NCBI RefSeq assembly: GCF_038433155.1
Contig: NZ_JBCDMW010000005.1
Location: 1-60,601 of the forward strand
From: Luteococcus sp. H101
GTDB lineage: Bacteria; Actinomycetota; Actinomycetes; Propionibacteriales; Propionibacteriaceae
DNA: 60,601 nucleotides
Direction: 5' to 3'
Shown piece by piece: positions 1,877 to 24,625 of the stretch. Every line of letters starts with the position of its first letter. Position 1 is the stretch's first letter. The notes below the pieces were generated by a model. That model saw only the letters and a list, made by a program, of their open reading frames with translations. It ran no database searches and was not told the DNA's origin. Both the position numbers and the translations under genes were made by a program.

Positions 1877-1929
1877 TTGTCCACAGGCCCCTGTGGATCG
1901 CTGTGGAAAAGCAGGAAGTTGTCCACAGC
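1877..1929. promoter_or_regulatory. cluster of four TGTGGA(C)AA half-sites (TTGTCCACAGG cc CCTGTGGAT cg CTGTGGAAAA ... GTTGTCCACAG) upstream of cpaB
   Basis: Read directly at 1877..1929. The same half-site recurs at 25051..25094 and 26783..26813. Confidence 0.5.
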
Positions 1930-1979
1930 CCTGCTATGACGGTAGGCCGGTTCCGGATCGTGCTGCAACGCTCGCCGCC

Positions 1980-2654
1980 ATGCTCCGCCCCGTCAAGAAG
2001 ACCTCCGACCCCGGCACCCCGGCAGCGCGCGTGGACCTGCCCGACCCGACGCTCCCCGTCGCCGCCCATCTGCGGCCGCGGCGTAGCCCCCGCCTGGTGG
2101 CGGCCGGGCTGCTGCTGGCCTGTCTGGGTGGGTTGGGCGGGGCGCTGGCCTACCAACGGGCCTCGCACGCCAACCAGGTGGTGGTGGTGCAACACGCCGT
2201 GCCGCGCGGGGAACTGGTCCGGGCGCAGGACCTGTCCGTCGTCACCATCGGCCCGGCGCCCGGGGTGCACACCGTCGACGCCAACCAGTTGCCCTCCCTG
2301 GTGGGCAAGCAGGCGCTGGTGGACCTGCCGGCCGGTTCCCTGGTGGGTGCTGGCTCGGTGGGCCAGGTAAGGCTGGCCAAGGGGCACGTCCAACTGGGGC
2401 TCAGGCTGGCGCCGGGGCGGGTGCCGGTGGAGCCGATGCCCGCCGGCACCCCGGTGCGTCTGGTGGAGGTCACCTCGGACAAGCAGGAGAACTCGGCGCT
2501 GGTGGTGGAGGCCATGATCGTCACCGCCGCCCGGACCCTGCCCGACGGCACCAGCCAGATGCTCGACGTCGGGGTGCCCGAGGCGCAGGCCCAACGGCTG
2601 GCGGACCTCTCCGCCCGGGACCTGTTGGTGGTTGTGCGCAAGGCGGGTGGCTGA
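1980..2654 (+). CDS. cpaB: Flp pilus assembly protein CpaB/RcpC-like (N-terminal TM plus SAF-like domain)
   Basis: MLRPVKK...RRSPRLVAAGLLLACLGGLGGALAY TM anchor followed by a beta-rich domain. It is the first gene of a tad-type cluster. The start was chosen at ATG 1980, in frame within ORF 1893..2654. Confidence 0.65.
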   Translation: MLRPVKKTSDPGTPAARVDLPDPTLPVAAHLRPRRSPRLVAAGLLLACLGGLGGALAYQRASHANQVVVVQHAVPRGELVRAQDLSVVTIGPAPGVHTVDANQLPSLVGKQALVDLPAGSLVGAGSVGQVRLAKGHVQLGLRLAPGRVPVEPMPAGTPVRLVEVTSDKQENSALVVEAMIVTAARTLPDGTSQMLDVGVPEAQAQRLADLSARDLLVVVRKAGG

Positions 2655-2655
2655 C

Positions 2656-3465
2656 GTGGCGGTGATCACCCTGGCCAGCGTCGCTGGGGCGCCCGGGGTC
2701 AGCACCAGTGCGTTGGGCCTGGCGCTGGCCTGGCCGCGCGACGTGCTGCTGGCCGACTGTGACCGGGATCCCGCGCAGACCATCCCGGCCGGCTACCTGC
2801 GGGGGACGGACCTGGGCGGCCGAGGCCTGGGCCAGCTGGCGGCGGTGCACCGGGAACACCGGCGCCTGGCCGAGGAGATCTGGCTGCAGACTGTGCGCCT
2901 GGACGGCGGGGAGCGGGACCGTCGCTTCCTGCCCGGCTTCACCCATCCCGGGGCGGTGGGCCTGTTCGGGCCCATCTGGCAGGAGCTGGCGGACTCCTTC
3001 GTCGCGCTGGGGGCCAGCGGAACCGACGTGTTGGTGGACGCCGGCCGGGTGGGGCGCGATGGCCTGCCCGGCCCGCTGCTGATGACCAGCGACGTGCTGT
3101 TGGTGACGGTGCGCAGTTCCCTGCGGGCGCTGGCCGCCCTGCGGCTGCACCTGCCGGCGGTGCAGGCCCAGCTGGAGGCCCTGGCCGCGCACGCCGAGCT
3201 GGCACTGCTGGTGGTGGGGCCCGGCAAGCCCTACAGCGGCGCCGAGATCGAGAAGCAGTTTGGTCTGCCGGCGCGCTACTCGATTGCCTGGGAACCCAAG
3301 CAGGCAAGGGTCTTCAGCGATGGCGCGAAGCCCTCACGCGGTCTGGCGGGCGGATCCCTGGTCCGCAGCTACCGGGCGTGCTCCTCCCGGCTGGCCGAAT
3401 CCGTGCAGCGTCGCACCGAGGTGGTGGCCGGGACCCGGCCCAGCGTCGAGTGGGGTGCGCGATGA
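2656..3465 (+). CDS. tadZ: CpaE/TadZ-like ParA-family protein with degenerate Walker A (helicase/secretion-neighbourhood CpaE-like)
   Basis: VAVITLASVAGAPGVSTSALGLALAW in place of a canonical P-loop. It sits between cpaB and tadA. GTG start at 2656 (alternative GTG at 2647), overlapping the cpaB stop. Confidence 0.55.
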   Translation: MAVITLASVAGAPGVSTSALGLALAWPRDVLLADCDRDPAQTIPAGYLRGTDLGGRGLGQLAAVHREHRRLAEEIWLQTVRLDGGERDRRFLPGFTHPGAVGLFGPIWQELADSFVALGASGTDVLVDAGRVGRDGLPGPLLMTSDVLLVTVRSSLRALAALRLHLPAVQAQLEALAAHAELALLVVGPGKPYSGAEIEKQFGLPARYSIAWEPKQARVFSDGAKPSRGLAGGSLVRSYRACSSRLAESVQRRTEVVAGTRPSVEWGAR

Positions 3466-4637
3466 GCCGTCGCGTTGCCGAACCCGCGCCCGCCCTGGCC
3501 GACCTGCTCGGGCAGTTGGCCGGGCCGAGCCCACAGGTCCGGGTGCGGCCCGCCCGCGCGGACACGAGCGGCCAGGCCGCCCCCTATCCGGCCACCGGGA
3601 CGGACCAGCCCGGGGTGGACTGGGACGTCGTGGTGCAGCTGCGGCGCCGCGCGTCGGAGCAGATCACCGAGGCCAGCGAGCACTTCAGCGGGGAACGCGG
3701 CCGGCTGATGAAGCCGGACGACCGGCGGATGATGGGGCGATCGGTGATCCGCCAGGTGGTGCGGCAACATGCCGAGATCCTGGCGCACGAGGGCCAGGCG
3801 CTGTGGCCGATCGAGCTGGAACAGGCCTACGCGGCGGCGGTGGAGAATGCGATCTTCGGCTACGGCCGCCTGCAACCGCTGTTCGAGATCCCCGACGCCG
3901 AGAACATCGAGATCCACGGTTGGGACTCGGTGATGGTCCAGTATGGCGACGGGCGACGGGAGGCCCACCCGCCCGTCGCGGACTCCGACGAGGAACTGGT
4001 GGAAGCCATCCGCTTCCTCGGGGAATCGGCCTCACCCAGCCGTCCCTTCGACGACGCGCACCCGATGATGACCCTGGCGCTGGGCGAACGCTTCCGCTTG
4101 CACGCCATCGGCTTCGGGTTGAGTTTCCGGCCCAGCATCATCATCCGGCAGCACATCCTGACCCGGGTCAGTCTGCGTCAGCTGGCGAACGGCGGGATGA
4201 TGCCGCTGGAGGTGGCCAGGCTGCTGCACGACGCGGTGCTGGCCCGCAAGTCGGCGGTGATCTCCGGCGACCAGGGGGCCGGCAAGACCACCCTGCTGCG
4301 CGCCATGATCAACGCGATTCCCACCACGGAACGCTTCGGCACCCTGGAGACGGACTACGAACTGCTCACCCACCTGCAGCCCGGCCGCAAGAACATGCTG
4401 GCCCTGCAGGCCAAGGTGGGCCTGGGGGAGCGGGCCGCCGACGGCAGCCGGATGGGCGAGTTCAGCATCAGCGACCTGATTCCGGAGGCCCTGCGGCAGA
4501 ACCTGTCCCGACTGGTGGTGGGCGAGGTCCGGGGCGGCGAGGCGGCCGCCATGTTCGAGGCCATGCAGTCGGGCACTTGCAGGCGGAAACTAGCCTCTCG
4601 AATCTCCTGCCAAGAGGGAGGACCGGCAATACAGTGA
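3462..4637 (+). pseudogene. tadA: tadA/cpaF pilus ATPase, 5' portion, interrupted by insertion of a mobile element after codon ...AMQSG (4574)
   Basis: Walker A GDQGAGKTTLLRAM is present, followed by ...GEVRGGEAAAMFEAMQSG. The ORF then reads 20 unrelated codons into element DNA and stops at 4637. The missing CpaF C-terminus (GSLSTTHS..., 'His box') is found at 24614 onward. Confidence 0.85.
4556..4600. other. attL junction of integrated element (host tadA arm / GG core at ~4572-4573 / element arm cacttgcaggcggaaact)
   Basis: Host coding sequence ends ...atgcagtcggg. The element arm that follows is the imperfect reverse complement of the arm at attR (aggttccaaatgcaagtg), matching 14 of 18 positions. 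Confidence 0.6.
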
Positions 4638-4641
4638 GGCC

Positions 4642-5430
4642 ATGCCAGCTCCCCCGTGGTTCGTGGACCAGCTCGGCTGGAAAGCCTTGGAGGCCAAGAG
4701 CCAACCCATGTCGCAGGACCTCTTCGGAATCCCAAGGGCCCCCAACCTTGCCGACGTCGCCAACAAGCCGAGCCTCCGGCTCGGGGCGGCCATGCTCGAG
4801 TCGCTATCGGTCAGGAGGGGCGCATCCCCTGTTTCCTCCGGAAAGCCTGGCACGTTGCTGGAGGAGGGAATCCGGTCAGACCTCGCTGAGACCCTCGCGG
4901 CGCTGGAGCCCAGTATCGCTTGGGGTGTCACGCGCGGCGGAACCGTGGAGCGTTTCGCCCAGTACCAGCACCTAGCCAAGCTGAAGGACTTGCTCGCGGC
5001 ATACCCTGACATTCCCATGGCGATGGGCAAGGACTACCAGATCAAGACTGACGTGATGGTCTCCGTGCCGGACAAGACCGAGCCTGGCCAAGACATCCTT
5101 CACGCGGCCGTGTCGTCGAAGTTCACGATCCGGTCTGACCGGGTCCAGAACATCCGATTCGAGTTTGCCACGCTGCTGCGCACTAGGCAGGGGCGGGCAC
5201 CGCACTTGGTGGTCGTGACGGGCGAGCCATTGCCCAGCCGTGTCGCAGCCATTGCGCAGGGCACGGGTGAGGTCGATGCTGTGTACCACCTGCTCTTCGA
5301 TGAAGTCTCGGATGCCGTCACGGCCCTCTTCCCGGCTGGGGCGAGCCAGCGCCGGACGTGGGAAGAACTGGTAGAGCGCCAGCGGGTGCGGCCCTACGAG
5401 GAGCTGGTCCTAGCCTTGGTGAGTTCATGA
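4642..5430 (+). CDS. type II restriction endonuclease, NgoMIV/Cfr10I family (predicted GCCGGC-type)
   Basis: The segment HAAVSSKFTIRSDRVQNIRFEF...RAPHLVVVTGEPLPSRVAAIAQGTGEVDAVYH closely resembles my recollection of the NgoMIV catalytic region (SxK...E with downstream PH-VVVT-EP-PSR-I-LGTGE-D-VYH). An upstream PD is present (VMVSVPD). RBS gtgagg lies before the ATG. Confidence 0.55.
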   Translation: MPAPPWFVDQLGWKALEAKSQPMSQDLFGIPRAPNLADVANKPSLRLGAAMLESLSVRRGASPVSSGKPGTLLEEGIRSDLAETLAALEPSIAWGVTRGGTVERFAQYQHLAKLKDLLAAYPDIPMAMGKDYQIKTDVMVSVPDKTEPGQDILHAAVSSKFTIRSDRVQNIRFEFATLLRTRQGRAPHLVVVTGEPLPSRVAAIAQGTGEVDAVYHLLFDEVSDAVTALFPAGASQRRTWEELVERQRVRPYEELVLALVSS

Positions 5431-6149
5431 CCGGTCAGTTGTTCGAACCCACGGCCGGGGGTGGCCTTGGCTTCTGCCACGACGCTATGCCCGGGTTGCT
5501 CCCAGCGGGCTACCACGGACCATTGGTGGTCGCCATCGACTCCAATGTACTGATCGACCTGTACGAGTTTGGCACCCGGATGGTGGAGGACAGCCTTCCC
5601 GAGCCCCCAGAGGTTCCGGCCTCGAGGGCAGGGGAGCTGGAGGCGATCGCCAGCATTCTGGACTTGTGGCTCATCAGGGACATCCGGCTGGTCACGACGC
5701 CACGGATCCTGACTGACGCCAAAGCCAATCCCTCGCGGCTTGCCCGCCGGAGGCAGGACATCGAGCACCTGGCTCGTGCACTGGCCTTCCAGCTCGAGGA
5801 CTGGGAGGAGCCGTTTCCGCTAAAGGCGCCGGAGCCCTCGTCGCCGCCGACTGTGATTGGGGCCCGGGGCGAGGCTGACCGGCAGCTCGTGGAAGAGGCA
5901 GCTGCGATCGGGGCTCACGTTTTCCTGACTCAGGACAAGCGCTTGCGGCGACCTGTTTCCATCCCAGATGCCGCGACCCAGGTCCTCTACCCGAGCGAGC
6001 TGGCGGCCACGCTGGCGGGGGCGCGCGTCACCCACTTCTTCGGCGGCATCTGCGGTGGCAGTGACTGCCCCTACCCGGATTTCAGCATGCCCGCCCCGGA
6101 CCTGGGCCGGTACGTGCTGCTGGGCCTGTTTGCGCCAGCGCCTGCGTGA
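5427..6149 (+). CDS. PIN-domain nuclease-like protein, translationally coupled (ATGA overlap) to the restriction endonuclease gene
   Basis: VVAIDSNVLIDLYEF (PIN beta1 with Asp), later acidic residues, and the C-terminal AAIGAHVFLTQDKRL PIN-like motif. Confidence 0.45.
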   Translation: MTGQLFEPTAGGGLGFCHDAMPGLLPAGYHGPLVVAIDSNVLIDLYEFGTRMVEDSLPEPPEVPASRAGELEAIASILDLWLIRDIRLVTTPRILTDAKANPSRLARRRQDIEHLARALAFQLEDWEEPFPLKAPEPSSPPTVIGARGEADRQLVEEAAAIGAHVFLTQDKRLRRPVSIPDAATQVLYPSELAATLAGARVTHFFGGICGGSDCPYPDFSMPAPDLGRYVLLGLFAPAPA

Positions 6150-6531
6150 TACGGGCAGCGCATGCCATGGCATCCTGCTTCACCTCGAAGTCCCAGAACC
6201 GTAGGACGGTCCACCCCATGGCTTCCAGCGCGCCGTTCGCTGCCTTGTCACGCTCCTGGTTCCTGGCGATCTTCGCCTTCCAGTAGTCGCTGGCCGCCTC
6301 CGGGTGCCAGTGGTCCGGGTGGCCATGCCAGTACGCGCCGTCAACGAACACGGCCACCTTTCGCCCCACGAAGGCGATGTCGGGCCGTCCTGGCAGGTCC
6401 TTGCGGTGAAGGCGGTAGCCCGGTTGCCCTGAGGCGCGAAGCGCTGCCCGCAGGGCCAGTTCCGGCTTGGTGTTGCTGGACCTGATGGCCCTCATGACGC
6501 GTGAGCGTCCTTCGGGGCTGAGGTGGTCCAT
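6082..6531 (-). CDS. vsr: very-short-patch repair endonuclease Vsr
   Basis: SRVMRAIRSSNTKPE, LPGRPDIAFV, VFVDGAYWHGH, YWKAKIARNQERD and MGWTVLRFWD all align with E. coli Vsr motifs. The start is 7 nt downstream of the dcm stop. Confidence 0.8.
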   Translation of the reverse strand: MDHLSPEGRSRVMRAIRSSNTKPELALRAALRASGQPGYRLHRKDLPGRPDIAFVGRKVAVFVDGAYWHGHPDHWHPEAASDYWKAKIARNQERDKAANGALEAMGWTVLRFWDFEVKQDAMACAARITQALAQTGPAARTGPGPGRAC

Positions 6532-6538
6532 GGCGGGC

Positions 6539-7537
6539 CTACTGGAACAGCAGCTCGGGTTCCTGGGCCCGGGCGGAGTTCTGGGGAGGTTCCGTGTCGA
6601 GGCGCGCGTTCAGGGCCTTGGCGATCTGGGTGCCGACAGCTGCGGCGACAGGCGGCGGGAAGGCATTGCCCACCTGGCGCCACGCGGCAGTCTTCGGGCC
6701 CGAGAACTTCCAGTCGGGCGGGAACCCCTGCACCAGGGCGCCCATCTCGACGGTCAGGCGCGGCGTGCCGGTGAAACCCGCCTCGGGTGCCGCCGGGGCG
6801 ATCGTCTTGCCGTCGACGCCCAGCTGGGCCCATGCCTTGCGGGCCCGGGTGGGCCCAAGGTCGGGGCCGCCATGCTTGTGCGAGCCCCCGACAAGGGTCG
6901 GGGCGATGGCGTTGGCCTGTCGGGCCCACTCGCTGGCACCCTCCCAGCCGTTGCTGGACATCAGGTCGAACAGGAGCTGCCCGACCGTGCGGGCTGGCTT
7001 CCGGGCAGGCTCGGGCCACGTGAAGTAGGCGTCCCACGGGTCCTTGATGGCGACCATGACGACGCGGGGGCGCAGTTGGGAGACGCCGAAGTCGCTGGCG
7101 TGCAGCAGCTTCCAGTGGGGGCGGAACCCCATGCTGGCCAGCTCGCGGGAGACCTCGTCGCGGAACCCCTCGAACTGCGGGTCCAGCAGCCCCCGGACGT
7201 TCTCGATCATCACGGCGCGGGGATCGGCCTGGCGGATCAGCTCCAGGGCGCGCGGGAACAGGTTGCGCTCGTCGTCGGCGCCCAGTTGCTTGCCAGCCTT
7301 CGAGAACGGGGGGCATGGCACGCCGCCTGCGAACAGGTCGACCTTGCCCTTGAAGGACTGCGCCGACCACTCGTTGAGGTCCATCTGGAGGGTGTTCCAC
7401 TGGGGCCGGTTCTGCCGCAGCGTCTCGCAGGCGCGTGCGTCCATCTCGACGCACGCGAGGTGCTTGAACCCCGCCGCCTCAAGGCCAAGCGCCTGGCCCC
7501 CTGCTCCGGCGCACACCTCTACGGACGTGAGTGGCAT
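6539..7537 (-). CDS. DNA (cytosine-5)-methyltransferase
   Basis: Motif I VCAGAGGQALG, motif IV GGVPCPPFS, motif VI IENVRGLL and motif X QVGNAFPPPVA. GGAGG RBS upstream of ATG 7537. Confidence 0.85.
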   Translation of the reverse strand: MPLTSVEVCAGAGGQALGLEAAGFKHLACVEMDARACETLRQNRPQWNTLQMDLNEWSAQSFKGKVDLFAGGVPCPPFSKAGKQLGADDERNLFPRALELIRQADPRAVMIENVRGLLDPQFEGFRDEVSRELASMGFRPHWKLLHASDFGVSQLRPRVVMVAIKDPWDAYFTWPEPARKPARTVGQLLFDLMSSNGWEGASEWARQANAIAPTLVGGSHKHGGPDLGPTRARKAWAQLGVDGKTIAPAAPEAGFTGTPRLTVEMGALVQGFPPDWKFSGPKTAAWRQVGNAFPPPVAAAVGTQIAKALNARLDTEPPQNSARAQEPELLFQ

Positions 7538-7565
7538 GGTCGTCCTCCTCTGTTTGGCTCATTCT

Positions 7566-7732
7566 TGCACAATGCCGGCGTGCTGGAAGCAATAATAGCA
7601 GATACTTCCTATTATTTCTAGGGTGCGCGGACAGTGAACGGCCTAGCCAATCGGGAAATTCTGGGTTCTTTCTTGGATTTCTCTGCAGGCCTCGACGGGA
7701 GCCCGGAAAGACTAAAAAATGCCGGCGCGGGA
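7566..7732. promoter_or_regulatory. AT-rich intergenic region between the methyltransferase gene and the upstream nuclease gene; two copies of AATGCCGGCG (containing GCCGGC) and an 8-bp inverted repeat AATAATAG/CTATTATT
   Basis: Direct repeats at 7571-7580 and 7718-7727, and the IR at ~7590-7615, were read from the sequence. AT content is unusually high for this genome. Confidence 0.35.
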
Positions 7733-8656
7733 TCAGAACAGCAAGCCGTGCGGGGCGGGCCTGGCAGGCTCGTCCCTGGGCAGGCTCAGCCAGTCGCCCG
7801 GCCCCAGCGCGAACCCGGCGACGGCGGCCCGCTCTCGGTCCTCCAGCCACTTGCCGCACAGGAGGTCGGCATTGTGCTCCGCGAGCACGAGGGCCTTGAC
7901 CTCCCGGGCCCGGCGCAGCGGGTCGTCACGGTTGGCGCAGACAGTCAGGATGGCATGCCTGGGAATCACGGTCCCGGGCAGGAACCCGAACAGCCGCGTG
8001 AGGCGGCGTGCCTGGCCGGTGCCCGGCTCGAAGACCAGGTCACGCTCGTGCGGCTCGAGGTCCCGCAAGGGGTTGTGCGGCAGGGCCGACCAGGGGATGA
8101 CAATCATGCCGAACCGGTCCAGGGCTGCTGCGCGGATCGTTGTCTTCCGGTCCTGGTTGCGGCCGGCGTTCAGCCACGCGTGGTGGGTGCGCATGAGCTG
8201 CACCTGGAACCGGTCATGGCGGAAGTCGATGCGGACCAGCAGGCACAGCTGGCACTGGGCTTCCTGCGGAATCGTCCACGTGCGTGCGACCGTGACCTTG
8301 ATGTCGACCGGGACGCCCTCGATCCACGTGTCCAGCGGGCCTCTCTTCTCGAGCCCCAGCGCGGACAGGATCCGGTACTGCGCCTTCGTGCCGACCGAGC
8401 TGCGCTCGTCGGAGTCGACCTCCGGGTCGTTCAGGTCGAAGCGGCCGGTGTGGGCGCCGTCCAGCACGTACTGGATGCTGTCGTCGAGCGCAGCGGTCAT
8501 CGCGACCGGGACTGCAGGCCGGGACAGCCACGCCCGCACGGCCTGCAGCTGCGCGTCATCCGCCGGGTCCTCGAGGACATGGCCATCGGGGACGGTCCCC
8601 CGCCGGGCATCTGGCTGGCACCAGTCGCCCGGCTGGGCAATCGCGTCCGACGTCAT
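7733..8656 (-). CDS. PD-(D/E)XK nuclease, possibly NaeI-like type II restriction endonuclease
   Basis: GPLDTWIEGVPVDIKVT gives D-x9-D-x-K, the spacing reported for the NaeI active site. The gene is on the same strand as, and immediately upstream of, the C5-MTase. Start is ATG 8656; a GTG at 8662 is also possible. Confidence 0.35.
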   Translation of the reverse strand: MTSDAIAQPGDWCQPDARRGTVPDGHVLEDPADDAQLQAVRAWLSRPAVPVAMTAALDDSIQYVLDGAHTGRFDLNDPEVDSDERSSVGTKAQYRILSALGLEKRGPLDTWIEGVPVDIKVTVARTWTIPQEAQCQLCLLVRIDFRHDRFQVQLMRTHHAWLNAGRNQDRKTTIRAAALDRFGMIVIPWSALPHNPLRDLEPHERDLVFEPGTGQARRLTRLFGFLPGTVIPRHAILTVCANRDDPLRRAREVKALVLAEHNADLLCGKWLEDRERAAVAGFALGPGDWLSLPRDEPARPAPHGLLF

Positions 8657-8808
8657 GCGCACACGCTAGCGCCGGCACCGCGGCCTAGCCGAGCGGGGTC
8701 CGTTGCTGGAACCAAAGACTTGGCTGTGAAAACGGCACGTTGCCATCGCTGATCATCTAGGGTGCAAGTAGAGTGCAACTTTCCGCTTGTCGATGGTAAG
8801 GATCTGCG

Positions 8809-9636
8809 ATGAACAAGCCCTTTGGGCTTTCGGGCGAGCACTACACGCTGGATCGCCCTCCGGCAGTGTTCAGCGTCTTTGAGGTGCGGTACGGCGAGGG
8901 GCGCGAACACATCAACCTCCAGGCGGGTTACGACCTTCAGGAGTTCATGTCCAAAACCTTTCCTGGCGGAACGTGGAAGGTCGAGAAGTCCACGTGGCAG
9001 GAGGCCCAGGTGGAGCTGACGCCCCAAGGGCCCCGCCAGCAGTCCTACTCGGAGGTCGGCGTCCGCCTCACAAGCTCGGAACTCTCCTGCGAGATGACAT
9101 TCTTCCCTTCTAGGGCGGCGGTTCAGGTGAGCCAGTACACGCGCTGGAGTACGTCACTGAAACCACTGGTGAGCGCGGCCGTGCTGGCTGTCGAACAGCT
9201 GCTCAAGCCAGTGGGACGGGATCGTGTGGGGTTGCGATACGTGAACAACTTCCAGGACCAGAAGGCCGTGACACCCGGCTTCTGGGACGGCAAGATCGAG
9301 CCGTCCCTGCTAGGACCAGTAGCTGGCGGCCCGTTCACGGGCCAGCTGCGTGATGCGCAGAGCCAGCTGGTTCTCGACTTGGGAGGTGGCGCCGGCGCAG
9401 TACTACGGCACGGGCTGCTCGCCTCACCTGCCGCGCCTGCAAGCGTGGGCTACCTGCTGGACATCGACACTTTTGACGAGCACAGCGCTAGGTTCGATGC
9501 GGAGGATGTCATCACGCGGGCGGAAGTGCTCAACCGCAACGCAGCCGAACTGTTCCAGAGGAGCCTGACCGAGCGTTTCTCGGTGGCACTCGGCAAGCGC
9601 AAGGTTGAATCGCAGGGGAATGGAGACATGCAATGA
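8809..9636 (+). CDS. TIGR04255-like family protein (uncharacterised)
   Basis: N-terminal PAVFSVFEVRYGEG and the later RVGLRYVNNF match the remembered TIGR04255 signature. Good RBS (aagga). It is the first gene of a three-gene overlapping operon. Confidence 0.45.
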   Translation: MNKPFGLSGEHYTLDRPPAVFSVFEVRYGEGREHINLQAGYDLQEFMSKTFPGGTWKVEKSTWQEAQVELTPQGPRQQSYSEVGVRLTSSELSCEMTFFPSRAAVQVSQYTRWSTSLKPLVSAAVLAVEQLLKPVGRDRVGLRYVNNFQDQKAVTPGFWDGKIEPSLLGPVAGGPFTGQLRDAQSQLVLDLGGGAGAVLRHGLLASPAAPASVGYLLDIDTFDEHSARFDAEDVITRAEVLNRNAAELFQRSLTERFSVALGKRKVESQGNGDMQ

Positions 9637-10313
9637 CCGCTGCAGTGCTGACCCGTACACGAACGGGTAGTTTCCATCCTGACCCCTATGCCGGGTGTGG
9701 GGCCCTGGTCTCCCACACGGGAATCCGCTACGAGTCCGTCCCCGATGTCAATTTCAGCGGCCGGCTCTTGCGCATGGACTTGATCTTCTCCACAACGGGA
9801 GAGACCTGGGTGGGTGAAGCGCCGCCGTCGGAGATCGGCGAGGATGAGGCAATCACGGTCCCTGCCGTGGTCGCCATTGAAGAGGCCGCGCAAGCCCTGG
9901 GGTTGCCCGTCAAGTACCTCCGCGAGGGTGCAGGGATCAGTCCTCGCACGTTCCATCACTGGAAGAAGACGCCGGCTGTGCAGCCGCGTGTATCGAGCCA
10001 AGCCGATGTGTGGGCCCTCATGGACACGCTCGAGACCCTGAAGGATCTCGTGGACGGGGACCTCGGGCTCTGGCTGAGGGCCGACACGGCCCGAATGCGA
10101 TTGCTGCGCGGAGGGGACTTGATGGGCCTCGTACGCGAGGCAACTCGCCGCGAGAGCTTGCGCAGCAACCGGTCTCACTTTGAGGAAGCGATGGCGGTTG
10201 GCTTCTTCGTCGAGCCCAAGGAAGCACCTGGCCCCGTTGGGCCCCGCCCTGTGGTTCGCGCCCGGAGGGCCGCCAGGGGTCGCGTCGTCCCAAGGGAAGG
10301 ACAGGGGGCGTGA
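9633..10313 (+). CDS. hypothetical protein, coupled (ATGA overlap) to the TIGR04255-like gene
   Basis: ORF with ggaga RBS and a 4-nt start/stop overlap with the preceding gene. No domain recognised. Confidence 0.4.
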   Translation: MTAAVLTRTRTGSFHPDPYAGCGALVSHTGIRYESVPDVNFSGRLLRMDLIFSTTGETWVGEAPPSEIGEDEAITVPAVVAIEEAAQALGLPVKYLREGAGISPRTFHHWKKTPAVQPRVSSQADVWALMDTLETLKDLVDGDLGLWLRADTARMRLLRGGDLMGLVREATRRESLRSNRSHFEEAMAVGFFVEPKEAPGPVGPRPVVRARRAARGRVVPREGQGA

Positions 10314-11230
10314 GCCAAGGACACTTTCCCATCGACCGGCTCCATCCCACATTTGATGACTGGACGGACGACCAGGCGCAGGCCCTGGACAAGTGGTATC
10401 AGGGAGCTCTGTGTCCCAGCATTCCCTTGGGGTGGTACGCCCCCAGCGGACTCGATGGAATCACTTCCGTCGAGGGGTTCGACGCGTCGGATTGGCTGTC
10501 GCCTGAGGGAGTGACGGAGGTTCCCGCTGGGGCGATCGTTGTTTCGCAGACGTGTGACATTGTCCTGTCTGGGCCGGGGCGGAGGCATCCCTTCGTCCAA
10601 GTGAGTCCTGTGTGGGTCATGCCGCGAAAGGACCTGAGCCAGCTGGCCGACCTCCAGCGCTGGCGAGTCGTCGACAAGGTGTTGCTCGATCCTCCCGCGG
10701 AAGGGTTCGCCCTGCTTGGCGCCGAACTGGATGACCTTGAATCGGTCGCGGCAATCGCCGACCTGAGGATCTCGATGCCCGTCAGCAAGTCTGTGTTGCT
10801 GGCGCACCAGCCCGTCAAGGCCTTTTGTGGTGATGACGCCGCGCTGAAATTCGCCGGCCACCTGGCAACCAAAGCCGCCCGTCCAGCACTGCCCGACGTC
10901 GTTGCCGTGATGGGGCGCGTCTTGGACGAGGAGATCCGAGGCCTATCCGGTGAGAGGTGGATGAGCAGTGTCGAATCAGTCCGTGTCACCTGCAGCCCGA
11001 GCCGCCAGCATGCCGAGAAGATTCGGCTGCTCGTCCTCCACACCGGCAGCGGCCAGCTACCCGGCGAGGTCTATAGGCATTGGGACAGGCTCTGGAAGCG
11101 CGTCCGTAAGAACAAGCAGGTGAGGGCCTTCCCGGCAATCACCCTGGGAAAGCCGGAGCACCTTCGAGCCCGGGACCTGCTCGCCACGTCCTATCGGGAT
11201 AGCGATGAGCTTCGCCTCCAGCACCTGTAG
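10310..11230 (+). CDS. hypothetical protein, third gene of the operon (GTGA overlap)
   Basis: GTG start overlaps the previous stop. 306 aa with no recognised domain. Confidence 0.4.
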   Translation: MSQGHFPIDRLHPTFDDWTDDQAQALDKWYQGALCPSIPLGWYAPSGLDGITSVEGFDASDWLSPEGVTEVPAGAIVVSQTCDIVLSGPGRRHPFVQVSPVWVMPRKDLSQLADLQRWRVVDKVLLDPPAEGFALLGAELDDLESVAAIADLRISMPVSKSVLLAHQPVKAFCGDDAALKFAGHLATKAARPALPDVVAVMGRVLDEEIRGLSGERWMSSVESVRVTCSPSRQHAEKIRLLVLHTGSGQLPGEVYRHWDRLWKRVRKNKQVRAFPAITLGKPEHLRARDLLATSYRDSDELRLQHL

Positions 11231-11309: not shown

Positions 11310-12557
11310 ATGAGCGACCTAGAAGATATCGGCTTCGACCACGATCAAGTTCAGGAGGAAGGCGAACCCTCCAGTAGCTCATGGCTTGACGAGCCTTCCG
11401 AGCCGGACGATGAGGTACGCGTCGACGAGTATGACATCGTCTCATCCCCCAATGACTGGAACTGCCTGACGATCACGTCCTTCATCGACTCTGGTGCCGT
11501 CAAGATTCCCAACTTCCAGAGAAACTACGTCTGGGACCAGAAGCGGGCATCCAAACTCATCGAGTCACTCCTTTTGGGCCTGCCGATCCCGCAGGTATTC
11601 CTCTACGAGGAGGCCCGGAACTCGTTCCTGGTCATTGATGGCCAGCAGCGCCTGCTCACGCTGTACTTCTACATGAAGGGCAGGTTCCCGAAGACATCTA
11701 GCCGGGCTGCAGTGCGGCATCTGCTCCAAGGGGGTCAGGGGATCGACCAGGCAAAACTTGCAGACGATGACCTCTTCGAGGATTTCAAGCTGAAGTTGCC
11801 GAGCCGGACTGACGGGTCAAGGAACAAGTTCCACGGGAAGAAGTACTTGGGGCTCGAGGACTACAAGTCGACGCTGGACCTTCGCACCATCCGCAACATC
11901 GTCGTCAAGCAGACCACGCCAGAGGGCGATGCTGCGATGTTCGAGATCTTCAACCGCCTGAACTCGCAAGGCGTGAACCTGACCCCCCAAGAGATTCGAG
12001 CAAGCCTCTTCCACTCCAAGCTGATGCAATCGGTCATCGGCATGAACGAAGATCATGGCTGGCGAACCGTCTTGGGGCTGAAGACGCCCGACCCGCGCAT
12101 GAAGGACACGGAAGTACTCCTGCGCTCCTTGGCCCTGGCCCGGGATCTCAACTCCTACTCGGGCACGATGGCTAACTTCATCAACCGGTTCGCGGGTAGC
12201 GCCAAGCGCTACAGTGACGCTCAGGCAGACGATGCAATCGCGGACCTGCGCTCCTTTATTGGTGCCGTAGCAGCAGTCGGCCATCCGGAAGCACCGGAGG
12301 CTTTCCGACGTGGTGGAAAGTTCAGCGGCATCCTCTTCGAGTCAGTCTTTGCGGCTTGGGTTCAGCTCGGAAAGCAAGCAGATGGGGAACAAGTCGTCCA
12401 AGTAGCCAAGCAGGTACGAGAACACAACACGTTTGCGGACAGCCTGCAGGAGGGGTCGACGAAGTCGGTCAATGTCAAGAAGCGGATCAATCTTGCCAAG
12501 GCGTACTTCCAGGGGGAGGAACCCGAAGAGGACAAGAACCCGGAGGCTGAGGAGTGA
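11310..12557 (+). CDS. DUF262 (ParB/Srx-like, DGQQR motif) domain protein, GmrSD N-terminal-domain-like
   Basis: FQRNYVWDQKRASKLIESLLLGLPIPQVFLYE...LVIDGQQRLLTL is the canonical DUF262 signature. There is no DUF1524/HNH C-terminal part. Local GC is visibly lower than the host average. Confidence 0.75.
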   Translation: MSDLEDIGFDHDQVQEEGEPSSSSWLDEPSEPDDEVRVDEYDIVSSPNDWNCLTITSFIDSGAVKIPNFQRNYVWDQKRASKLIESLLLGLPIPQVFLYEEARNSFLVIDGQQRLLTLYFYMKGRFPKTSSRAAVRHLLQGGQGIDQAKLADDDLFEDFKLKLPSRTDGSRNKFHGKKYLGLEDYKSTLDLRTIRNIVVKQTTPEGDAAMFEIFNRLNSQGVNLTPQEIRASLFHSKLMQSVIGMNEDHGWRTVLGLKTPDPRMKDTEVLLRSLALARDLNSYSGTMANFINRFAGSAKRYSDAQADDAIADLRSFIGAVAAVGHPEAPEAFRRGGKFSGILFESVFAAWVQLGKQADGEQVVQVAKQVREHNTFADSLQEGSTKSVNVKKRINLAKAYFQGEEPEEDKNPEAEE

Positions 12558-13090
12558 GTGCAGAGGGGACGCCGGCGGCAGTGGCGTCGCTTAGCGATGA
12601 CATCGCTTACATGGAAGTGCTCTTGTCCGCGGACCCCTCGGCGTTGGCAGCCTTGGGCAGGATCGCCCCCAAGGTGCTCCTCATCGCTGCCGCCAGTGCC
12701 CTGGAGGACCAAGTCAAGGAGGAACTGCAGCGACTTGCCCGGGCTCATGGTCACGCTGAGTTGGCCGAGTGCGTGACCCGGGGAATCCTGGCGAGGGGCT
12801 ATCACACGTTGTTCGAGTGGGATAAGACGAATGCCAACAGGTTCTTTGCCCTGTTTGGTCCGGACGCCAAGGAACGGTGCCAAGCGGCTGTGGGAGCAGA
12901 TGAGGCCCTCGATCGCTCGGTGCGGGCCTTTCTTGAGCTCGGCAGGTTGCGTAACAACCTGGTGCACAACAACTACGTGACGTTCGAGGTGCCAAAGACC
13001 GTGCTGGACATCGTGGAACTCTACGAGGCAGCACGAGTCTTCCCCACGAGATTCGGTGAACTCCTTTTCCTGAATCCCCAAGCAGCATGA
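12554..13090 (+). CDS. HEPN-like protein (Rx4H motif RLRNNLVH), overlapping the DUF262 gene stop
   Basis: GTG start overlaps the upstream TGA. The C-terminal LELGRLRNNLVHNNY fits the HEPN R-x4-6-H motif. Confidence 0.5.
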   Translation: MSAEGTPAAVASLSDDIAYMEVLLSADPSALAALGRIAPKVLLIAAASALEDQVKEELQRLARAHGHAELAECVTRGILARGYHTLFEWDKTNANRFFALFGPDAKERCQAAVGADEALDRSVRAFLELGRLRNNLVHNNYVTFEVPKTVLDIVELYEAARVFPTRFGELLFLNPQAA

Positions 13091-20052: not shown

Positions 20053-20562
20053 ATGACCAGCAACACGACCGGTTGGGGCAAGAACACCCAACCCCACTCC
20101 CGTGGTCACTTGGACCACATTGAGCGTGAACTGGGCCTGGGGGTTGCCAATACGGTGCACCGCCCTGACGGCCTCGCGTACCAGGCCCGGCGGGAGGGAG
20201 ACCATCCCGTTCCCTCCGTGGCCGAACTGGCGGCACGCATCGACGGGGCCCTCAACAACCTGAACAACCTGTGGCTCGTGGCCGACGAGCTGCAGAGCCA
20301 GTTCCTGGAGGTCCAGGACGTTGTCAACGGCTTCTTGAAGCACGGCGCACCGCCCCCTCCGGAGGTCACGGTGTTCACCGTCAAGCAGGCCTGCACCCAT
20401 CTGGGAGTGAGCAGGACGACACTCACCAGGCTGCGCAAGCAAGGGCTGCCGTGCTTCACGCTGGGGGAGGGCACCGCTGCGCGCCCGCGCTTCCGGCGAG
20501 ACGAGCTGGACGCCTGGATCGCCAAGCACCAGCCGCGTCGCACGATCGGTGGCCAGCGATGA
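20053..20562 (+). CDS. xis: excisionase/MerR-type HTH protein (Xis-like)
   Basis: C-terminal FTVKQACTHLGVSRTTLTRLRKQGLPCFTLGEGTAARPRFRRDELDAWI. Its stop overlaps (ATGA) the integrase start. Confidence 0.5.
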   Translation: MTSNTTGWGKNTQPHSRGHLDHIERELGLGVANTVHRPDGLAYQARREGDHPVPSVAELAARIDGALNNLNNLWLVADELQSQFLEVQDVVNGFLKHGAPPPPEVTVFTVKQACTHLGVSRTTLTRLRKQGLPCFTLGEGTAARPRFRRDELDAWIAKHQPRRTIGGQR

Positions 20563-21803
20563 AGCGCGCGAAGGCGAAGGCTGGCGAGATCATCCCCCGG
20601 TTGCAGCAGGACGGCCGCTGGCGCACCAAGGTGACCATCGGCACCGACCCGCTCACCGGCAAGCCGCGCAGGCGTGACGTCTACGGCGCCACCTCCGAGG
20701 AATGCGCCCTCAAGGCCCGCAAGCTCCTGGACCGTGTCACGCACCACGGCATGAACTCCGTGCCCCGTGGCCGCGACCTCACCGTGTCGCAGTGGATCGA
20801 CCAGTGGCTGCTGGCCAGTCGCGAGACGCAGGTTCTGCGACCCAACACCCTGTCCGGGTACGAGTCGATGTGCCGGATCCACATCGTCCCCATGATCGGC
20901 AACATCCCGCTCAACAAGCTCAGCACGCAGGATGTCCACCTGATGCTGACCGCCACTGACTCCGAAGGCAATCCGGCGATGTCCGCGGCGATGCGCCGGC
21001 ACGCGCACAAGGTGCTGTCGGCTGCGCTGGCCGAGGCCGAGCGCTACGGCCACGTCGACACCAACGTCGCCAAGCTGGTCCGCACGAAGCGGCCCCGGGA
21101 GCCCGAGGTGGTGCCACTGTCCGTCGGCCAGGTCCGGCAGGTCCTCTCGCTGGCCCGGTCGCGGGACGAGGCCGCCCGCTGGCAACTGGCACTCGTCCTG
21201 GGCTTGCGCCAGAGCGAGGCCTTGGGCTTGCGGTGGCAGGACATCGACCTGGACAAGGGCCTGATGCACGTCTCTCGCCAGCTGAACCGGCGCAGGTGGC
21301 AGCACGGCTGCGACGTCGAGCACGACTGCCCAGGCACCCCCTCGACGTGCCCGCAGGCCCGTCGCCTCGATGAGCTGGCCGAAACCAAGACCGACCGGAG
21401 CGTGCGCACCATCACCTTGCCGGAAGGCGTGGTGGCAGACCTGCGGCGCCAGCGCAAGGTGCAGGACCGCCAGCGACGCCGCGCCAAGGACCGGTGGGTG
21501 GAGAAGGACTTCGTGTTCACCGGCCGGTACGGCAACCCGGTCAGCCAGCGCGTCGACCAGCTGGCATGGCGTGACCTGCTGGTGGACGCGGGCGTGCCGC
21601 ACATCCGCCTGCACGATGCCCGACACACGGCAGCGACACTGCTGGTGGCGCTGGGCACCCCGCACGTGACCATCATGGAGGTCATGGGCTGGTCGCACCT
21701 GGGCATGATCACGCGCTACACGCACCGCGTCGACGACATGCACCGCCGCGCGGCAGACGGCATGCAGCGGCTCCTCGAAGGGGAGATCTCGCGCTCGCTG
21801 TGA
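20559..21803 (+). CDS. int: tyrosine-type site-specific integrase
   Basis: SAM-like N-terminal region. Catalytic region with RLHDARHTAATLL (HxxR) and MITRYTHR (Tyr). Confidence 0.85.
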   Translation: MKRAKAKAGEIIPRLQQDGRWRTKVTIGTDPLTGKPRRRDVYGATSEECALKARKLLDRVTHHGMNSVPRGRDLTVSQWIDQWLLASRETQVLRPNTLSGYESMCRIHIVPMIGNIPLNKLSTQDVHLMLTATDSEGNPAMSAAMRRHAHKVLSAALAEAERYGHVDTNVAKLVRTKRPREPEVVPLSVGQVRQVLSLARSRDEAARWQLALVLGLRQSEALGLRWQDIDLDKGLMHVSRQLNRRRWQHGCDVEHDCPGTPSTCPQARRLDELAETKTDRSVRTITLPEGVVADLRRQRKVQDRQRRRAKDRWVEKDFVFTGRYGNPVSQRVDQLAWRDLLVDAGVPHIRLHDARHTAATLLVALGTPHVTIMEVMGWSHLGMITRYTHRVDDMHRRAADGMQRLLEGEISRSL

Positions 21804-23135: not shown

Positions 23136-24575
23136 TCACATTCGAGGCGTCTTCCATTGCAGTTCCAGGGAGTCAGGGTTGAGGATCCGCTGGCGCCAGT
23201 CCAGGTAGGTGGCCTCCTTGGTGCGGGCGGGCCTGATCTTGACGACGAGCAGGGCGTCGATGACGTTGCGCCGCTCGTCCTCGTCCAGGTCCTCCCACAC
23301 GAGTGCCGGGTCGGTGGCCTGCTGCAGCTTCGCCAGGGCGGGGGAGCCGAGGGCTGGCAGCTGTGCCTCCAGGGCCTCCAGCTGGCCTGCCAGGCGCTGC
23401 TGGCCGGATTTCAGCTGCTGCAGCGTGATGTCGCCGTCGGTGAAGGCCTGCACGAGGCCGTCGCGGCGCTGGTTGACCTGGGCCATCTGTTCCCGGATGG
23501 CGGCGGTGTCGGCCTGCTGGCCGCTGGGTGCCAGCTGGTCCAGCACGTGCGGCTGGGCGAGGTACTGCAGGACGATGCGGGTGACGAAGTCGTCGATCGG
23601 GGCTGCTTCCCGGTAGGCATGGCCGCCCTTGCTGGAGCACCGGTAGCGGCGCCGCCCGTTGCGGGTGCCGCCGGAGTGGATGACGGCGTCGCACACAGCG
23701 CACCTGGCCACGCCTGACAGCAGCCCACGGGACTGCGCAGGCCACTTGCGTTCCGGGTTGTTCAGGATGGCCTGGACGGCCTGCCAGGTGTCCAGGTCGA
23801 CGACCGGTGGCCATTCGCCGCGCACCGGGTTGCCGTCGGCATCGGTGAGCACCTGGCGCTGGTAGGAGCGGATACCGGCCAGGCGGGTGGTGCGCAGGGT
23901 GAGGCCGACGATGCTGCCGGTCCACGGGTTGCCTGCCTGTGGCGTGACCAGGCCTTGCGCGTTCCAGGCGCGGGCAATTCCTGCCAGTGAGCCGCCATCC
24001 AGAATGGTCTGGTAGGCGCGGCGGATGGCCTCGGCCTCGGTCTCGCGGATGGTCAGCCCGTCGGGTTCGTACCCGAAGCAGCGCCGGGTGCCGAAATGCC
24101 TGCCTTGCAGCGCGCGTTGCAGGTTGGCGCGCTTCTGCCGCTCGCCTTTCTGCTCGGACTCGTACTGGGCGACCGCGGCGAGCTGGCGGGCCACCATGCG
24201 CCCGGACGGGGTGGCCAGGTCGAGGGGGCCAGCCATGCACGCGATGGTGGGCACCGAGCGCGGCTGGCAGACGGCGATGTAGCCCTCGAGGTCGGTGGTG
24301 CGCCGGTACAGCCGGTCGGTGTGCCAGACGAGGACGACGTCGACCTGCCCGTCCTCGATGGCTTTGAGCAAGGCCTTGTAGCCGGGCCGGGGCGTGGAGC
24401 TGTAGGCGGAGGTGTCGTTGTCGCTGTAGACGGCCACGACGTCATGGCCGAGTTCAGCGGCTTTGGCGCGGCAGTCCTCCTCCTGCCTAGTGACGCCGGC
24501 CTTCTCGCCGGTGGGGTCACGGCTGATGCGCGTGTAGATCGCCGCTTTGCCCATGTAGGAAGGATATGCCAGCAT
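23136..24575 (-). CDS. large serine recombinase (resolvase N-terminal domain, recombinase domain, zinc ribbon, coiled-coil)
   Basis: AAIYTRISRD...GVTRQ catalytic N-terminus, the Cys cluster CAVCDAVIH...RYRCSS, and a C-terminal coiled coil. The start (ATG 24575 or 24554) abuts attR. Confidence 0.85.
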   Translation of the reverse strand: MLAYPSYMGKAAIYTRISRDPTGEKAGVTRQEEDCRAKAAELGHDVVAVYSDNDTSAYSSTPRPGYKALLKAIEDGQVDVVLVWHTDRLYRRTTDLEGYIAVCQPRSVPTIACMAGPLDLATPSGRMVARQLAAVAQYESEQKGERQKRANLQRALQGRHFGTRRCFGYEPDGLTIRETEAEAIRRAYQTILDGGSLAGIARAWNAQGLVTPQAGNPWTGSIVGLTLRTTRLAGIRSYQRQVLTDADGNPVRGEWPPVVDLDTWQAVQAILNNPERKWPAQSRGLLSGVARCAVCDAVIHSGGTRNGRRRYRCSSKGGHAYREAAPIDDFVTRIVLQYLAQPHVLDQLAPSGQQADTAAIREQMAQVNQRRDGLVQAFTDGDITLQQLKSGQQRLAGQLEALEAQLPALGSPALAKLQQATDPALVWEDLDEDERRNVIDALLVVKIRPARTKEATYLDWRQRILNPDSLELQWKTPRM

Positions 24576-24584
24576 GCCATGTTG

Positions 24585-24625
24585 GACATAGGTTCCAAAT
24601 GCAAGTGGGGGCGGGCAGCCTCAGT
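24585..24625. other. attR junction (element arm aggttccaaatgcaagtg / GG core ~24608-24609 / host tadA arm ggcgggcagcctcagt)
   Basis: The element arm is the imperfect reverse complement of the arm at attL. Host coding sequence resumes in frame as ...GAGSLSTTH. Confidence 0.6.

Follow-up and report, generated by a model that had tools for sequence, protein, structure and literature searches.

The stretch of DNA analysed here, referred to as the window, comprises 60,601 nucleotides of contig NZ_JBCDMW010000005.1 (positions 1 to 60,601, forward strand) of the actinobacterium Luteococcus sp. H101. Near its left end lie five genes which most likely constitute a composite Type II restriction-modification (RM) module directed to the sequence GCCGGC. 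On the forward strand, the gene of a NgoMIV-family restriction endonuclease (REase) at 4642-5430 is followed by that of a PIN-fold protein at 5427-6149; on the reverse strand, and convergent to this pair, the gene of a NaeI-family REase at 7733-8662 is followed by those of a C5 cytosine DNA methyltransferase (MTase) at 6539-7537 and of a Vsr-type T:G mismatch endonuclease at 6082-6531. The products of the module genes are 100% identical to NCBI entries filed under "unclassified Luteococcus". In its usual description, a Type II RM system has a single REase and a single MTase.

The product of 4642-5430, a protein of 262 amino acids predicted to cleave G^CCGGC, is named "NgoMIV family type II restriction endonuclease" by NCBI. 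It matches the Pfam family NgoMIV_restric (PF09015) with an E value of 7.4e-40 (137 bits, cutoff 23.2) and the structure of NgoMIV (PDB 1fiu) with an E value of 9.2e-28 as a single sequence and of 1.3e-52 as a profile of 34 homologues, covering NgoMIV residues 31-285. Over the block SSKFTIRSDR ... PHLVVVTGEPLPSR ... GTGEVDAVYH, the alignment with NgoMIV residues 177-255 is free of gaps. Residues D38, E74, D137, K160, R164, D166, R167, E174, and R200 correspond to NgoMIV D34, E70, D140, K187, R191, D193, R194, E201, and R227, respectively, and all nine are invariant in the alignments of the actinobacterial clade. In NgoMIV, E70, D140, K187, and E201 are catalytic, R191, D193, and R194 read CCGG, and D34 and R227 read the outer G:C pair. 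The catalytic positions (E74, D137, K160, and E174) are invariant among the 34 homologues, and both the CCGG-reading R-x-D-R motif (R164, D166, R167) and the positions reading the outer G:C pair (D38, R200) are kept; GCCGGC is, by these residues, the predicted recognition sequence. Prototype NgoMIV is a Type IIF enzyme, a homotetramer cleaving two sites concertedly. The gene starts 4 nt past the stop codon of a truncated cpaF gene, and a promoter scan revealed no promoter-like site upstream of the REase-PIN pair, which may owe its transcription to read-through from the tad operon of the host.

The second REase is encoded on the reverse strand at 7733-8662 and comprises 309 amino acids when read from the GTG at 8662 (NCBI gives 307 amino acids, from the ATG at 8656). 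Residues 55-279 match the Pfam family NaeI (PF09126; E 3.6e-29, 102 bits, cutoff 25), and a family profile of 36 sequences matches the structure of NaeI (PDB 1ev7) with an E value of 1.5e-17 over NaeI residues 9-272, which include the Endo and the Topo (CAP-like) domain. The active site reads E86 ... D111-x8-D120-x-K122 and is aligned to E70, D86, D95, and K97 of NaeI, the catalytic residues of that enzyme (TD-x8-DCK motif). E86, D111, and K122 are invariant in the 36 homologues, position 120 being either D or E. The NaeI prototype is a Type IIE enzyme, cleaving GCC^GGC and requiring a second, effector site. The window protein would likewise recognize GCCGGC, which is in line with the repeated sharing of one MTase by NaeI- and NgoMIV-family genes.

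The C5-MTase (6539-7537, reverse strand; 332 amino acids) matches Pfam PF00145 with an E value of 9.6e-61 (206 bits), and motifs I, IV, VI, and X can be read intact from its translation as CAGAGG, GGVPCPPFS, IENV, and QVGNAFPP. Two MTase lineages are distinguished among the loci compared (designated by L numbers), namely, lineage A in the window, L029, L061, and L030, and lineage B, about 30% identical to A, in L027, L028, L005, and L064. The window MTase is 77%, 58%, and 48% identical to the enzymes of L029, L061, and L030, respectively, which stand beside NaeI-family genes, and GCCGGC is its probable target by this relationship. NaeI-family genes adjoin both lineages, and lineage B also partners close NgoMIV orthologues (L027, L064), which fits protection of the same site by either lineage. 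Between the NaeI-like and the MTase gene lies an AT-rich intergenic spacer of 195 bp (7538-7732, reverse strand), for which a promoter scan gave two sigma-70-like matches against 0.3 expected and which probably is the promoter of the MTase-Vsr unit. The spacer contains the inverted repeat AATAATAG-N10-CTATTATT, with a GCCGGC site to either side of it (7574 and 7721), and may serve as an operator or a methylation-sensitive control region. The Vsr-type endonuclease (6082-6531, reverse strand; 149 amino acids) is recognized by the Pfam Vsr model (E 2.7e-24, 85 bits, cutoff 27) and by TIGR00632 (128 bits, cutoff 97.85). Its gene is convergent with the PIN gene, and the 3' ends of the two overlap by 68 nt, corresponding to about the last 22 codons of Vsr. 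GCCGGC occurs 131 times in the window against 130.8 occurrences expected; since the sequence is not avoided in host DNA, active enzymes would require methylation. No GCCGGC is found within a 3.3 kb stretch extending from 4279 to 7573.

The PIN gene (5427-6149, forward strand) encodes 240 amino acids from an ATG that overlaps the TGA stop of the NgoMIV-like gene (ATGA), a start backed by the N-terminal alignment with 29 homologues. The protein scores below threshold against PIN_3 of Pfam (E 0.0013, 20 bits, cutoff 27), and the searches gave neither an above-threshold Pfam PIN family nor a match in NCBIfam or PADLOC, nor, with the single sequence, a match in the PDB; ten distant relatives had no Pfam match. 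An AlphaFold2 model built from 30 homologues is confident (predicted local distance difference test score 80.7; predicted template modelling score 0.83) and has the three-layer alpha/beta/alpha architecture with a parallel sheet, and the likeness to known PIN domains, that define this fold. The nearest structures in the fold search are VapC toxins, which are RNases; Foldseek searches against the PDB and viral structures returned weak matches only (E >= 0.07), with Exo1 and FEN1 among them. Invariant in the alignment of 30 sequences are D38, D44, D97, D151, E157, T168, and D170 as well as C17, H30, C209, and C214. In the model, D38 lies at the end of strand 1 and T168-x-D170 past strand 3; D38, D97, D151, E157, and D170 would be the acidic residues of a predicted metal site, and the invariant Cys and His residues hint at a structural metal site that would link the additional segments at the two termini. 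The protein is about 100 residues longer than VapC and has, besides these conserved Cys/His segments, an insertion at 120-148. The family is small and comprises 30 clusters at 90% identity, in which every record with an organism name is from Actinobacteria, and 233 representatives at 50% identity (E <= 0.001); tblastn against plasmid and phage collections found no match. Although NCBI names the protein "type II toxin-antitoxin system VapC family toxin", a classical VapBC toxin was ruled against by the lack of a conserved antitoxin gene and of membership in a curated VapC or PIN family. At 19 loci, no conserved ORF (open reading frame) precedes the PIN genes, which are therefore not part of a VapBC pair; the only conserved upstream DNA is a divergent MTase gene. 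In the window, the upstream gene is that of the 262-residue REase, and no small antitoxin gene is present.

An initial annotation of the window, made from its nucleotide sequence alone, had described the same five ORFs within 4642-8656, and all five are confirmed. It had assigned 4642-5430 to the NgoMIV type from the block that now aligns gap-free (PF09015, 7.4e-40; 1fiu, 9.2e-28), had noted the overlap of the REase stop with the start of a PIN-domain ORF, the fold of which is borne out by the model and the fold search, and had described the Vsr and C5-MTase genes as convergent to this pair, both families being confirmed by Pfam (2.7e-24 and 9.6e-61). Its NaeI-like second nuclease is likewise upheld (PF09126, 3.6e-29; profile against 1ev7, 1.5e-17), the D-x9-D-x-K spacing given there being D111-x8-D120-x-K122, with the two Asp residues nine positions apart. 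The proposal that both nucleases would share the specificity GCCGGC is consistent with the retention of the NgoMIV residues checked and of the NaeI catalytic tetrad.

Contexts of NaeI-family homologues were collected from genomes and a metagenome scan and scored by tblastn with the window proteins and with MTase and REase queries derived from the loci. In 8 of the 16 NaeI loci having at least 8 kb of sequence, an NgoMIV_restric-family gene clusters with NaeI, C5-MTase, and usually Vsr (L028, L030, L031, L032, L033, L037, L038, and L040), and the shorter contig L043 carries both REases as well; L028 is from Nocardioides kribbensis and L030 from Nocardia asteroides (CP089214), the seven others being metagenomic. 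The commoner partner of NaeI-family genes is a variant NgoMIV_restric subfamily (L028, L031, L033, L037, L040, and L043), which keeps D140, K187, and R-x-D-R, has E201 changed to Q and R227 to M, and, except in L043, E70 to A or S; its catalytic arrangement may differ, or its role may be one that involves no cleavage. Among the loci sampled, NaeI is paired with the canonical NgoMIV type only in L030 and the window, which makes L030 the closest architecture. There, the Vsr, NgoMIV, and HNH genes, read in this order on the reverse strand, diverge from MTase and NaeI on the forward strand, and an HNH-type nuclease gene (L030:2428-3168, reverse strand), directly downstream of the NgoMIV-like gene, occupies the slot of the window's PIN gene. 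HNH-type nuclease genes also flank NaeI at L029:5164-5919 (forward strand) and L061:1868-2698 (reverse strand); such accessory-slot genes of NaeI/NgoMIV clusters encode about 250-275 amino acids. As the combination of NaeI, NgoMIV, MTase, and Vsr recurs in unrelated Actinobacteria and metagenomes, it is a conserved, selected architecture and no local accident, and two REases under one MTase are a conserved design and a variant of Type II RM. The initial annotation had called the module no standard RM layout; this does not apply to the two REases sharing one MTase, and it stands for the PIN gene, which is unusual. In the searchable literature, no description of NaeI/NgoMIV/Vsr co-occurrence was found. 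As a separate observation, a canonical NgoMIV-family REase gene of Nocardioides sp. (L026:7001-7792) has a tyrosine integrase gene and MZB/helicase genes as neighbours; a tblastn search of the 7 kb to each side of it gave no C5-MTase, and the enzyme is either an apparent orphan or served by an unlinked MTase.

The neighbourhoods of PIN-family genes were compared at 26 distinct loci, so that the counts derive from a few dozen loci and involve no formal background model. Vsr was found at 10 of them, a C5-MTase at 10, and a MORC-like GHKL ATPase at 14, with at least one of the three at 17; the contig of one distant relative, P0320, is too short to be informative on context. Altogether, the family occurs in at least six layouts beside C5-MTase, Vsr, NgoMIV/NaeI, or MORC-type (Mza, Hma) defence genes. 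In L064 and L065, a forward PIN gene faces the reverse gene of a close NgoMIV orthologue, from which a lineage B MTase and Vsr diverge on the forward strand. In L061-63, a reverse Vsr gene and a forward lineage A MTase are followed by a reverse HNH gene and then, all on the forward strand, by genes for a NaeI-family REase, a MORC-like ATPase, a PF28273 protein, and the PIN protein. L005, L016, L017, and L021 (and L019 in part) have a reverse lineage B MTase divergent from a forward series of PIN, Vsr, HmaB, HmaC, and MORC-like genes; at these five loci, PIN and MTase are about 100-120 bp apart and a PD-(D/E)XK REase is lacking. In L005, L016, L017, and L021, the PIN and vsr genes either overlap or have only a few bases between them, and in L019 the divergent MTase and PIN genes were found with no Vsr detected. 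The order in L024 is PIN, a further gene, and MTase on the forward strand, Vsr on the reverse strand, and MzaB, MzaC, and MzaD on the forward strand. Six syntenic Streptomyces loci carry mzaBCDE on the reverse strand, divergent from PIN and a gene designated Mrr_cat-nSTAND3, and in L066 and L067, PIN is followed by MORC-like and Methyltransf_35 genes and, further on, by HNH_2, which converges on Vsr. An AspBHI-like gene (m5C-dependent type, m5C being 5-methylcytosine) precedes PIN in L006, and in L003 the PIN gene is 3-7 kb away from those of a C5-MTase and Vsr. Two loci were seen to carry PIN-family paralogues: those of L019 (4134-4937 and 7998-8687) flank a MORC-like ATPase and a C5-MTase, and those of L025 (7815-8648 and 8666-9403) are convergent neighbours. 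MORC/paraMORC ATPases have been described as associated with DCM methylases, Vsr, RE-fold nucleases, and AIPR, a description in which PIN-like proteins do not figure (PMC2292703; Iyer et al. 2008), and in a 2017 census of PIN-like proteins, no PIN-like nucleases were observed in putative Type II RM contexts (PMC5499597). Beyond this explicit negative, no description of PIN proteins in Type II RM or MORC contexts was found in the literature. The PIN gene had initially been regarded as welded to the REase gene. This is true of the window and specific to it, as the partners of the family elsewhere are C5-MTase, Vsr, NgoMIV/NaeI, and MORC genes.

Taken together, the five genes are best explained, with a probability of roughly 60%, as a composite Type II RM module, most likely GCCGGC-specific, consisting of one MTase, two REases, Vsr, and an accessory PIN nuclease. 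One m5C MTase would serve two unrelated PD-(D/E)XK REases, one of the NgoMIV and one of the NaeI type, both with complete active sites. A single methylation, most simply that of the inner cytosine (GCm5CGGC), would shield the host from both; that both would be blocked at this position is suggested by the sensitivity of the commercial NaeI and NgoMIV enzymes to CpG methylation. Unmethylated incoming DNA would be attacked by two enzymes differing in fold and cut position, a barrier which a phage anti-restriction protein may find harder to beat. Prototype Vsr repairs T:G mismatches arising from m5C deamination, and the Vsr of the module would limit C-to-T mutation at the methylated sites. The PIN protein would serve as an accessory nuclease, and its family, dedicated and so far unannotated, has no antitoxin and travels with m5C-MTase/Vsr/NgoMIV/NaeI cassettes and with MORC-type loci. 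In the window it is presumably co-translated with the NgoMIV-type REase, and read-through from the tad operon may transcribe both. It might act as a latent second-line effector, restrained by or cooperating with its RM or MORC partners; this last part of the proposal is drawn by analogy and held with low confidence.

Several observations weigh against this explanation. The specificities of both REases and of the MTase are all predictions from sequence. In a single-sequence PDB search, the NaeI-like protein gave no match to 1ev7, and as it is too divergent from crystallised NaeI for such a match, its specificity and dependence on an effector site are presumptive. The window Vsr reads DGAYWHGHP and WDFE where seven aligned relatives have DGCFWHxCP and WE(H/C)E. 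With the Cys/His residues of the DGCFWHxC and WEC/H motifs as the presumed structural zinc ligands of Vsr, at least two ligand positions are substituted in the window and retained as Cys or His in the relatives, so that the zinc site may be altered and the enzyme impaired. The module contains 3 GCCGGC sites where about 9 are expected (P 0.02), a weak depletion that is not reproduced in 20 related loci; avoidance of the site, with the window as a whole at expectation, was set aside as evidence of specificity. As to the PIN gene, the sequence examined around it contains no RM, Vsr, or MORC gene at eight loci (L001, L009, L010, L011, L018, L020, L022, and L025, two of them short contigs), a ninth, L006, has the AspBHI-like gene only, and the genes to which PIN is operon-coupled change from locus to locus. 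The association could thus reflect, in part, the general clustering of genes in defence islands. Moreover, the PIN and NgoMIV genes are convergent, and not co-translated, in L064 and L065, and these data show no physical or regulatory link between PIN and REase.

In one alternative, the PIN protein would be no more than a toxin of the VapC type, or a passenger of the defence island, with no functional tie to the adjacent RM genes, and the module simply a two-REase RM system with Vsr. Its NCBI name and the VapC toxins found nearest to it in structure agree with this, and so do the 8 of 26 loci with no RM, Vsr, or MORC neighbour and the variation of neighbours from locus to locus, as defence-island shuffling would give. 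This alternative is nevertheless unlikely: no VapB-like or other conserved ORF lies upstream of PIN at the 19 loci, the protein exceeds VapC by some 100 residues and has conserved Cys/His extensions, Vsr is present at 10 of 26 PIN loci against about 1% for a random 16 kb actinobacterial window (a rough estimate), PIN came to lie next to NgoMIV/NaeI-type cassettes in at least four different gene orders, and at several loci PIN overlaps the start or stop of an adjoining defence gene or is separated from it by a few bases. A somewhat more doubtful proposal is that the PIN protein is itself a restriction endonuclease of new fold serving the GCCGGC MTases of the NgoMIV type (lineage B) or the NaeI type (lineage A). 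The family would then be a hitherto unrecognised functional component of GCCGGC-type m5C RM, providing the restriction nuclease itself in cassettes of MTase, PIN, and Vsr and, in the window, the third such nuclease under one MTase. It fills the REase slot beside the divergent MTase in L005, L016, L017, L019, and L021, where a PD-(D/E)XK REase is lacking, and the MTase lineage of these cassettes is 43-44% identical over its full length to the NgoMIV-family-paired MTases of L027 and L028 and 54-56% identical to those beside the NgoMIV-like genes of L033 and L040; the protein has invariant acidic residues, and its conserved terminal Cys/His segments could form a DNA-binding module. Yet the closest folds are those of VapC RNases, and nine Streptomyces loci and several others have PIN with no C5-MTase in 16 kb of sequence that contains GCCGGC at 1.4-2.0 sites per kb, so that a PIN protein cutting this site would be lethal in an unmethylated host unless an MTase is encoded elsewhere. 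A further REase would also be superfluous where PD-(D/E)XK REases are present, as in the window, L061, and L064, and we know of no PIN-fold Type II REase.

Highly improbable, finally, is a role in repair, in which the PIN protein would be a 5' nuclease removing the strand nicked by Vsr at T:G mismatches or would take part in MORC/MutL-like processing, and so would be a repair accessory in place of an immune effector. The position of vsr directly after PIN in four loci and the convergence of PIN on vsr in the window could be read in this way, as could the prominence of MORC-like (MutL-related) GHKL ATPases, the most frequent neighbours (14 of 26 loci), and the fact that the PIN-like superfamily includes 5' flap nucleases, which the weak matches to Exo1 and FEN1 recall. 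That MutL stimulates Vsr, as discussed in PMC2292703, was counted in favour as well. On the other hand, PIN occurs without Vsr in 16 of the 26 loci. Actinobacteria, moreover, already own the 5' nuclease of Pol I. The role of an accessory or back-up nuclease effector within the composite module thus remains the best guess, suggested in part by analogy, since the partners of PIN vary, the theme of m5C, Vsr, and MORC is constant, and no antitoxin is present.

Among known systems, the module can be compared with two RM prototypes. The window REase matches NgoMIV of Neisseria gonorrhoeae (1FIU/4ABT; Type IIF, G^CCGGC) over nearly its full length with the checked residues kept, and actinobacterial NgoMIV loci, L027 among them, show the same convergent order of REase and MTase-Vsr; in contrast, the window MTase is only about 30% identical to the lineage accompanying NgoMIV orthologues (L027, L064), and a second REase and PIN are added. 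To the NaeI system (Type IIE, GCC^GGC; 1EV7/1IAW), the window is related by a protein belonging to Pfam NaeI, with both domains aligned and the tetrad E70/D86/D95/K97 kept, and by an MTase of a lineage adjoining NaeI-family genes; it differs in that its enzyme is divergent from crystallised NaeI and shares the MTase with an NgoMIV-type enzyme. The actinobacterial clusters of NaeI, C5-MTase, NgoMIV_restric, and Vsr, such as those of Nocardia asteroides CP089214 and Nocardioides kribbensis, contain the same four components as the window. The Nocardia locus L030 shares with it the canonical NgoMIV type, a lineage A MTase (48%), and a third nuclease downstream of the NgoMIV-like gene, whereas this nuclease is of the HNH type and the gene order is different; most of the other four-gene clusters have the variant NgoMIV_restric subfamily, unlike the canonical type of the window. 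From VapC of VapBC systems, the window PIN protein is set apart by the absence of an antitoxin gene, its greater length by about 100 residues, its scores below the Pfam thresholds, and the RM and MORC genes that are the partners of its family. PrrC-EcoprrI, in which an RNase is kept latent by an RM complex, offers an analogy only; PrrC is an anticodon nuclease that does not belong to the PIN proteins, and its RM partner is a Type I system. PcrIIC1-Cas9, where a PIN-like accessory protein enhances a DNA-targeting immune nuclease, is an analogy only, too. Among MORC/paraMORC systems (Mza and Hma of PADLOC), PIN relatives adjoin mzaBCDE (E values of MzaB and MzaC from 1e-111 to 3e-188) and HmaB/HmaC. 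No such genes were found in the island of the window; they accompany PIN-family genes at other loci only.

The module forms the left end of a genomic island within a contig of high, actinobacterial GC content (window, 68.9%). A tad/cpa pilus operon occupies genes at 1893-4637, and the frame of its CpaF/TadA ATPase departs from the conserved sequence past "EAMQSG" at about 4572, the remainder, "GAGSLSTTHSHSA...", restarting near 24600. By translation and sequence reading, the left junction of the island was placed within cpaF/tadA at 4572-4641; an insert of about 20 kb (roughly 4572-24600) splits the gene into an N-terminal part at 3378-4637 and a C-terminal part from about 24600. The third-position GC content (GC3) of the island is lower, and a large serine recombinase gene lies at its right end (23136-24575, reverse strand). 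A tyrosine integrase is encoded at 20271-21803, and the cargo further includes P63C, FRG, and DUF218 proteins. Conceivably, the island can be excised and so acts as a switch of tad pilus assembly. The five module genes are the first at its left end. Within 4642-8662, the NaeI and MTase genes have a host-like GC3 of 0.91, and the NgoMIV-like, PIN, and Vsr genes one of 0.77-0.80, which resembles that of the island elsewhere; this split suggests a mosaic origin, the module having been put together from two sources. Adjoining the NaeI gene and divergent to it are three forward ORFs with overlapping stops and starts (8809-11230), which encode a TIGR04255-family protein (E 4e-23), a protein of 226 amino acids with a weak match to an Xre-like helix-turn-helix, and one of 306 amino acids with no matches. 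They are followed at 11310-13090 (forward strand) by a GmrSD_N/DUF262 protein gene (PADLOC NsnA, E 1e-51), the stop of which overlaps the start of the gene for a RiboL-PSP-type HEPN protein; the two appear to make up another defence pair on the island.

In Actinobacteria, the design with two REases, one of the IIF and one of the IIE type, sharing an MTase and Vsr points to selection for redundancy, possibly against anti-restriction proteins or targets in which sites are sparse. The unannotated PIN-fold family, with its links to loci of Type II m5C RM, Vsr, and MORC/Mza/Hma, would be a new element of such systems. If the PIN protein is an effector controlled by the RM system, it would represent a new mechanism for layering immunity; if it is a restriction nuclease, it would establish a new nuclease class for RM and be the first PIN-fold restriction endonuclease known to us.

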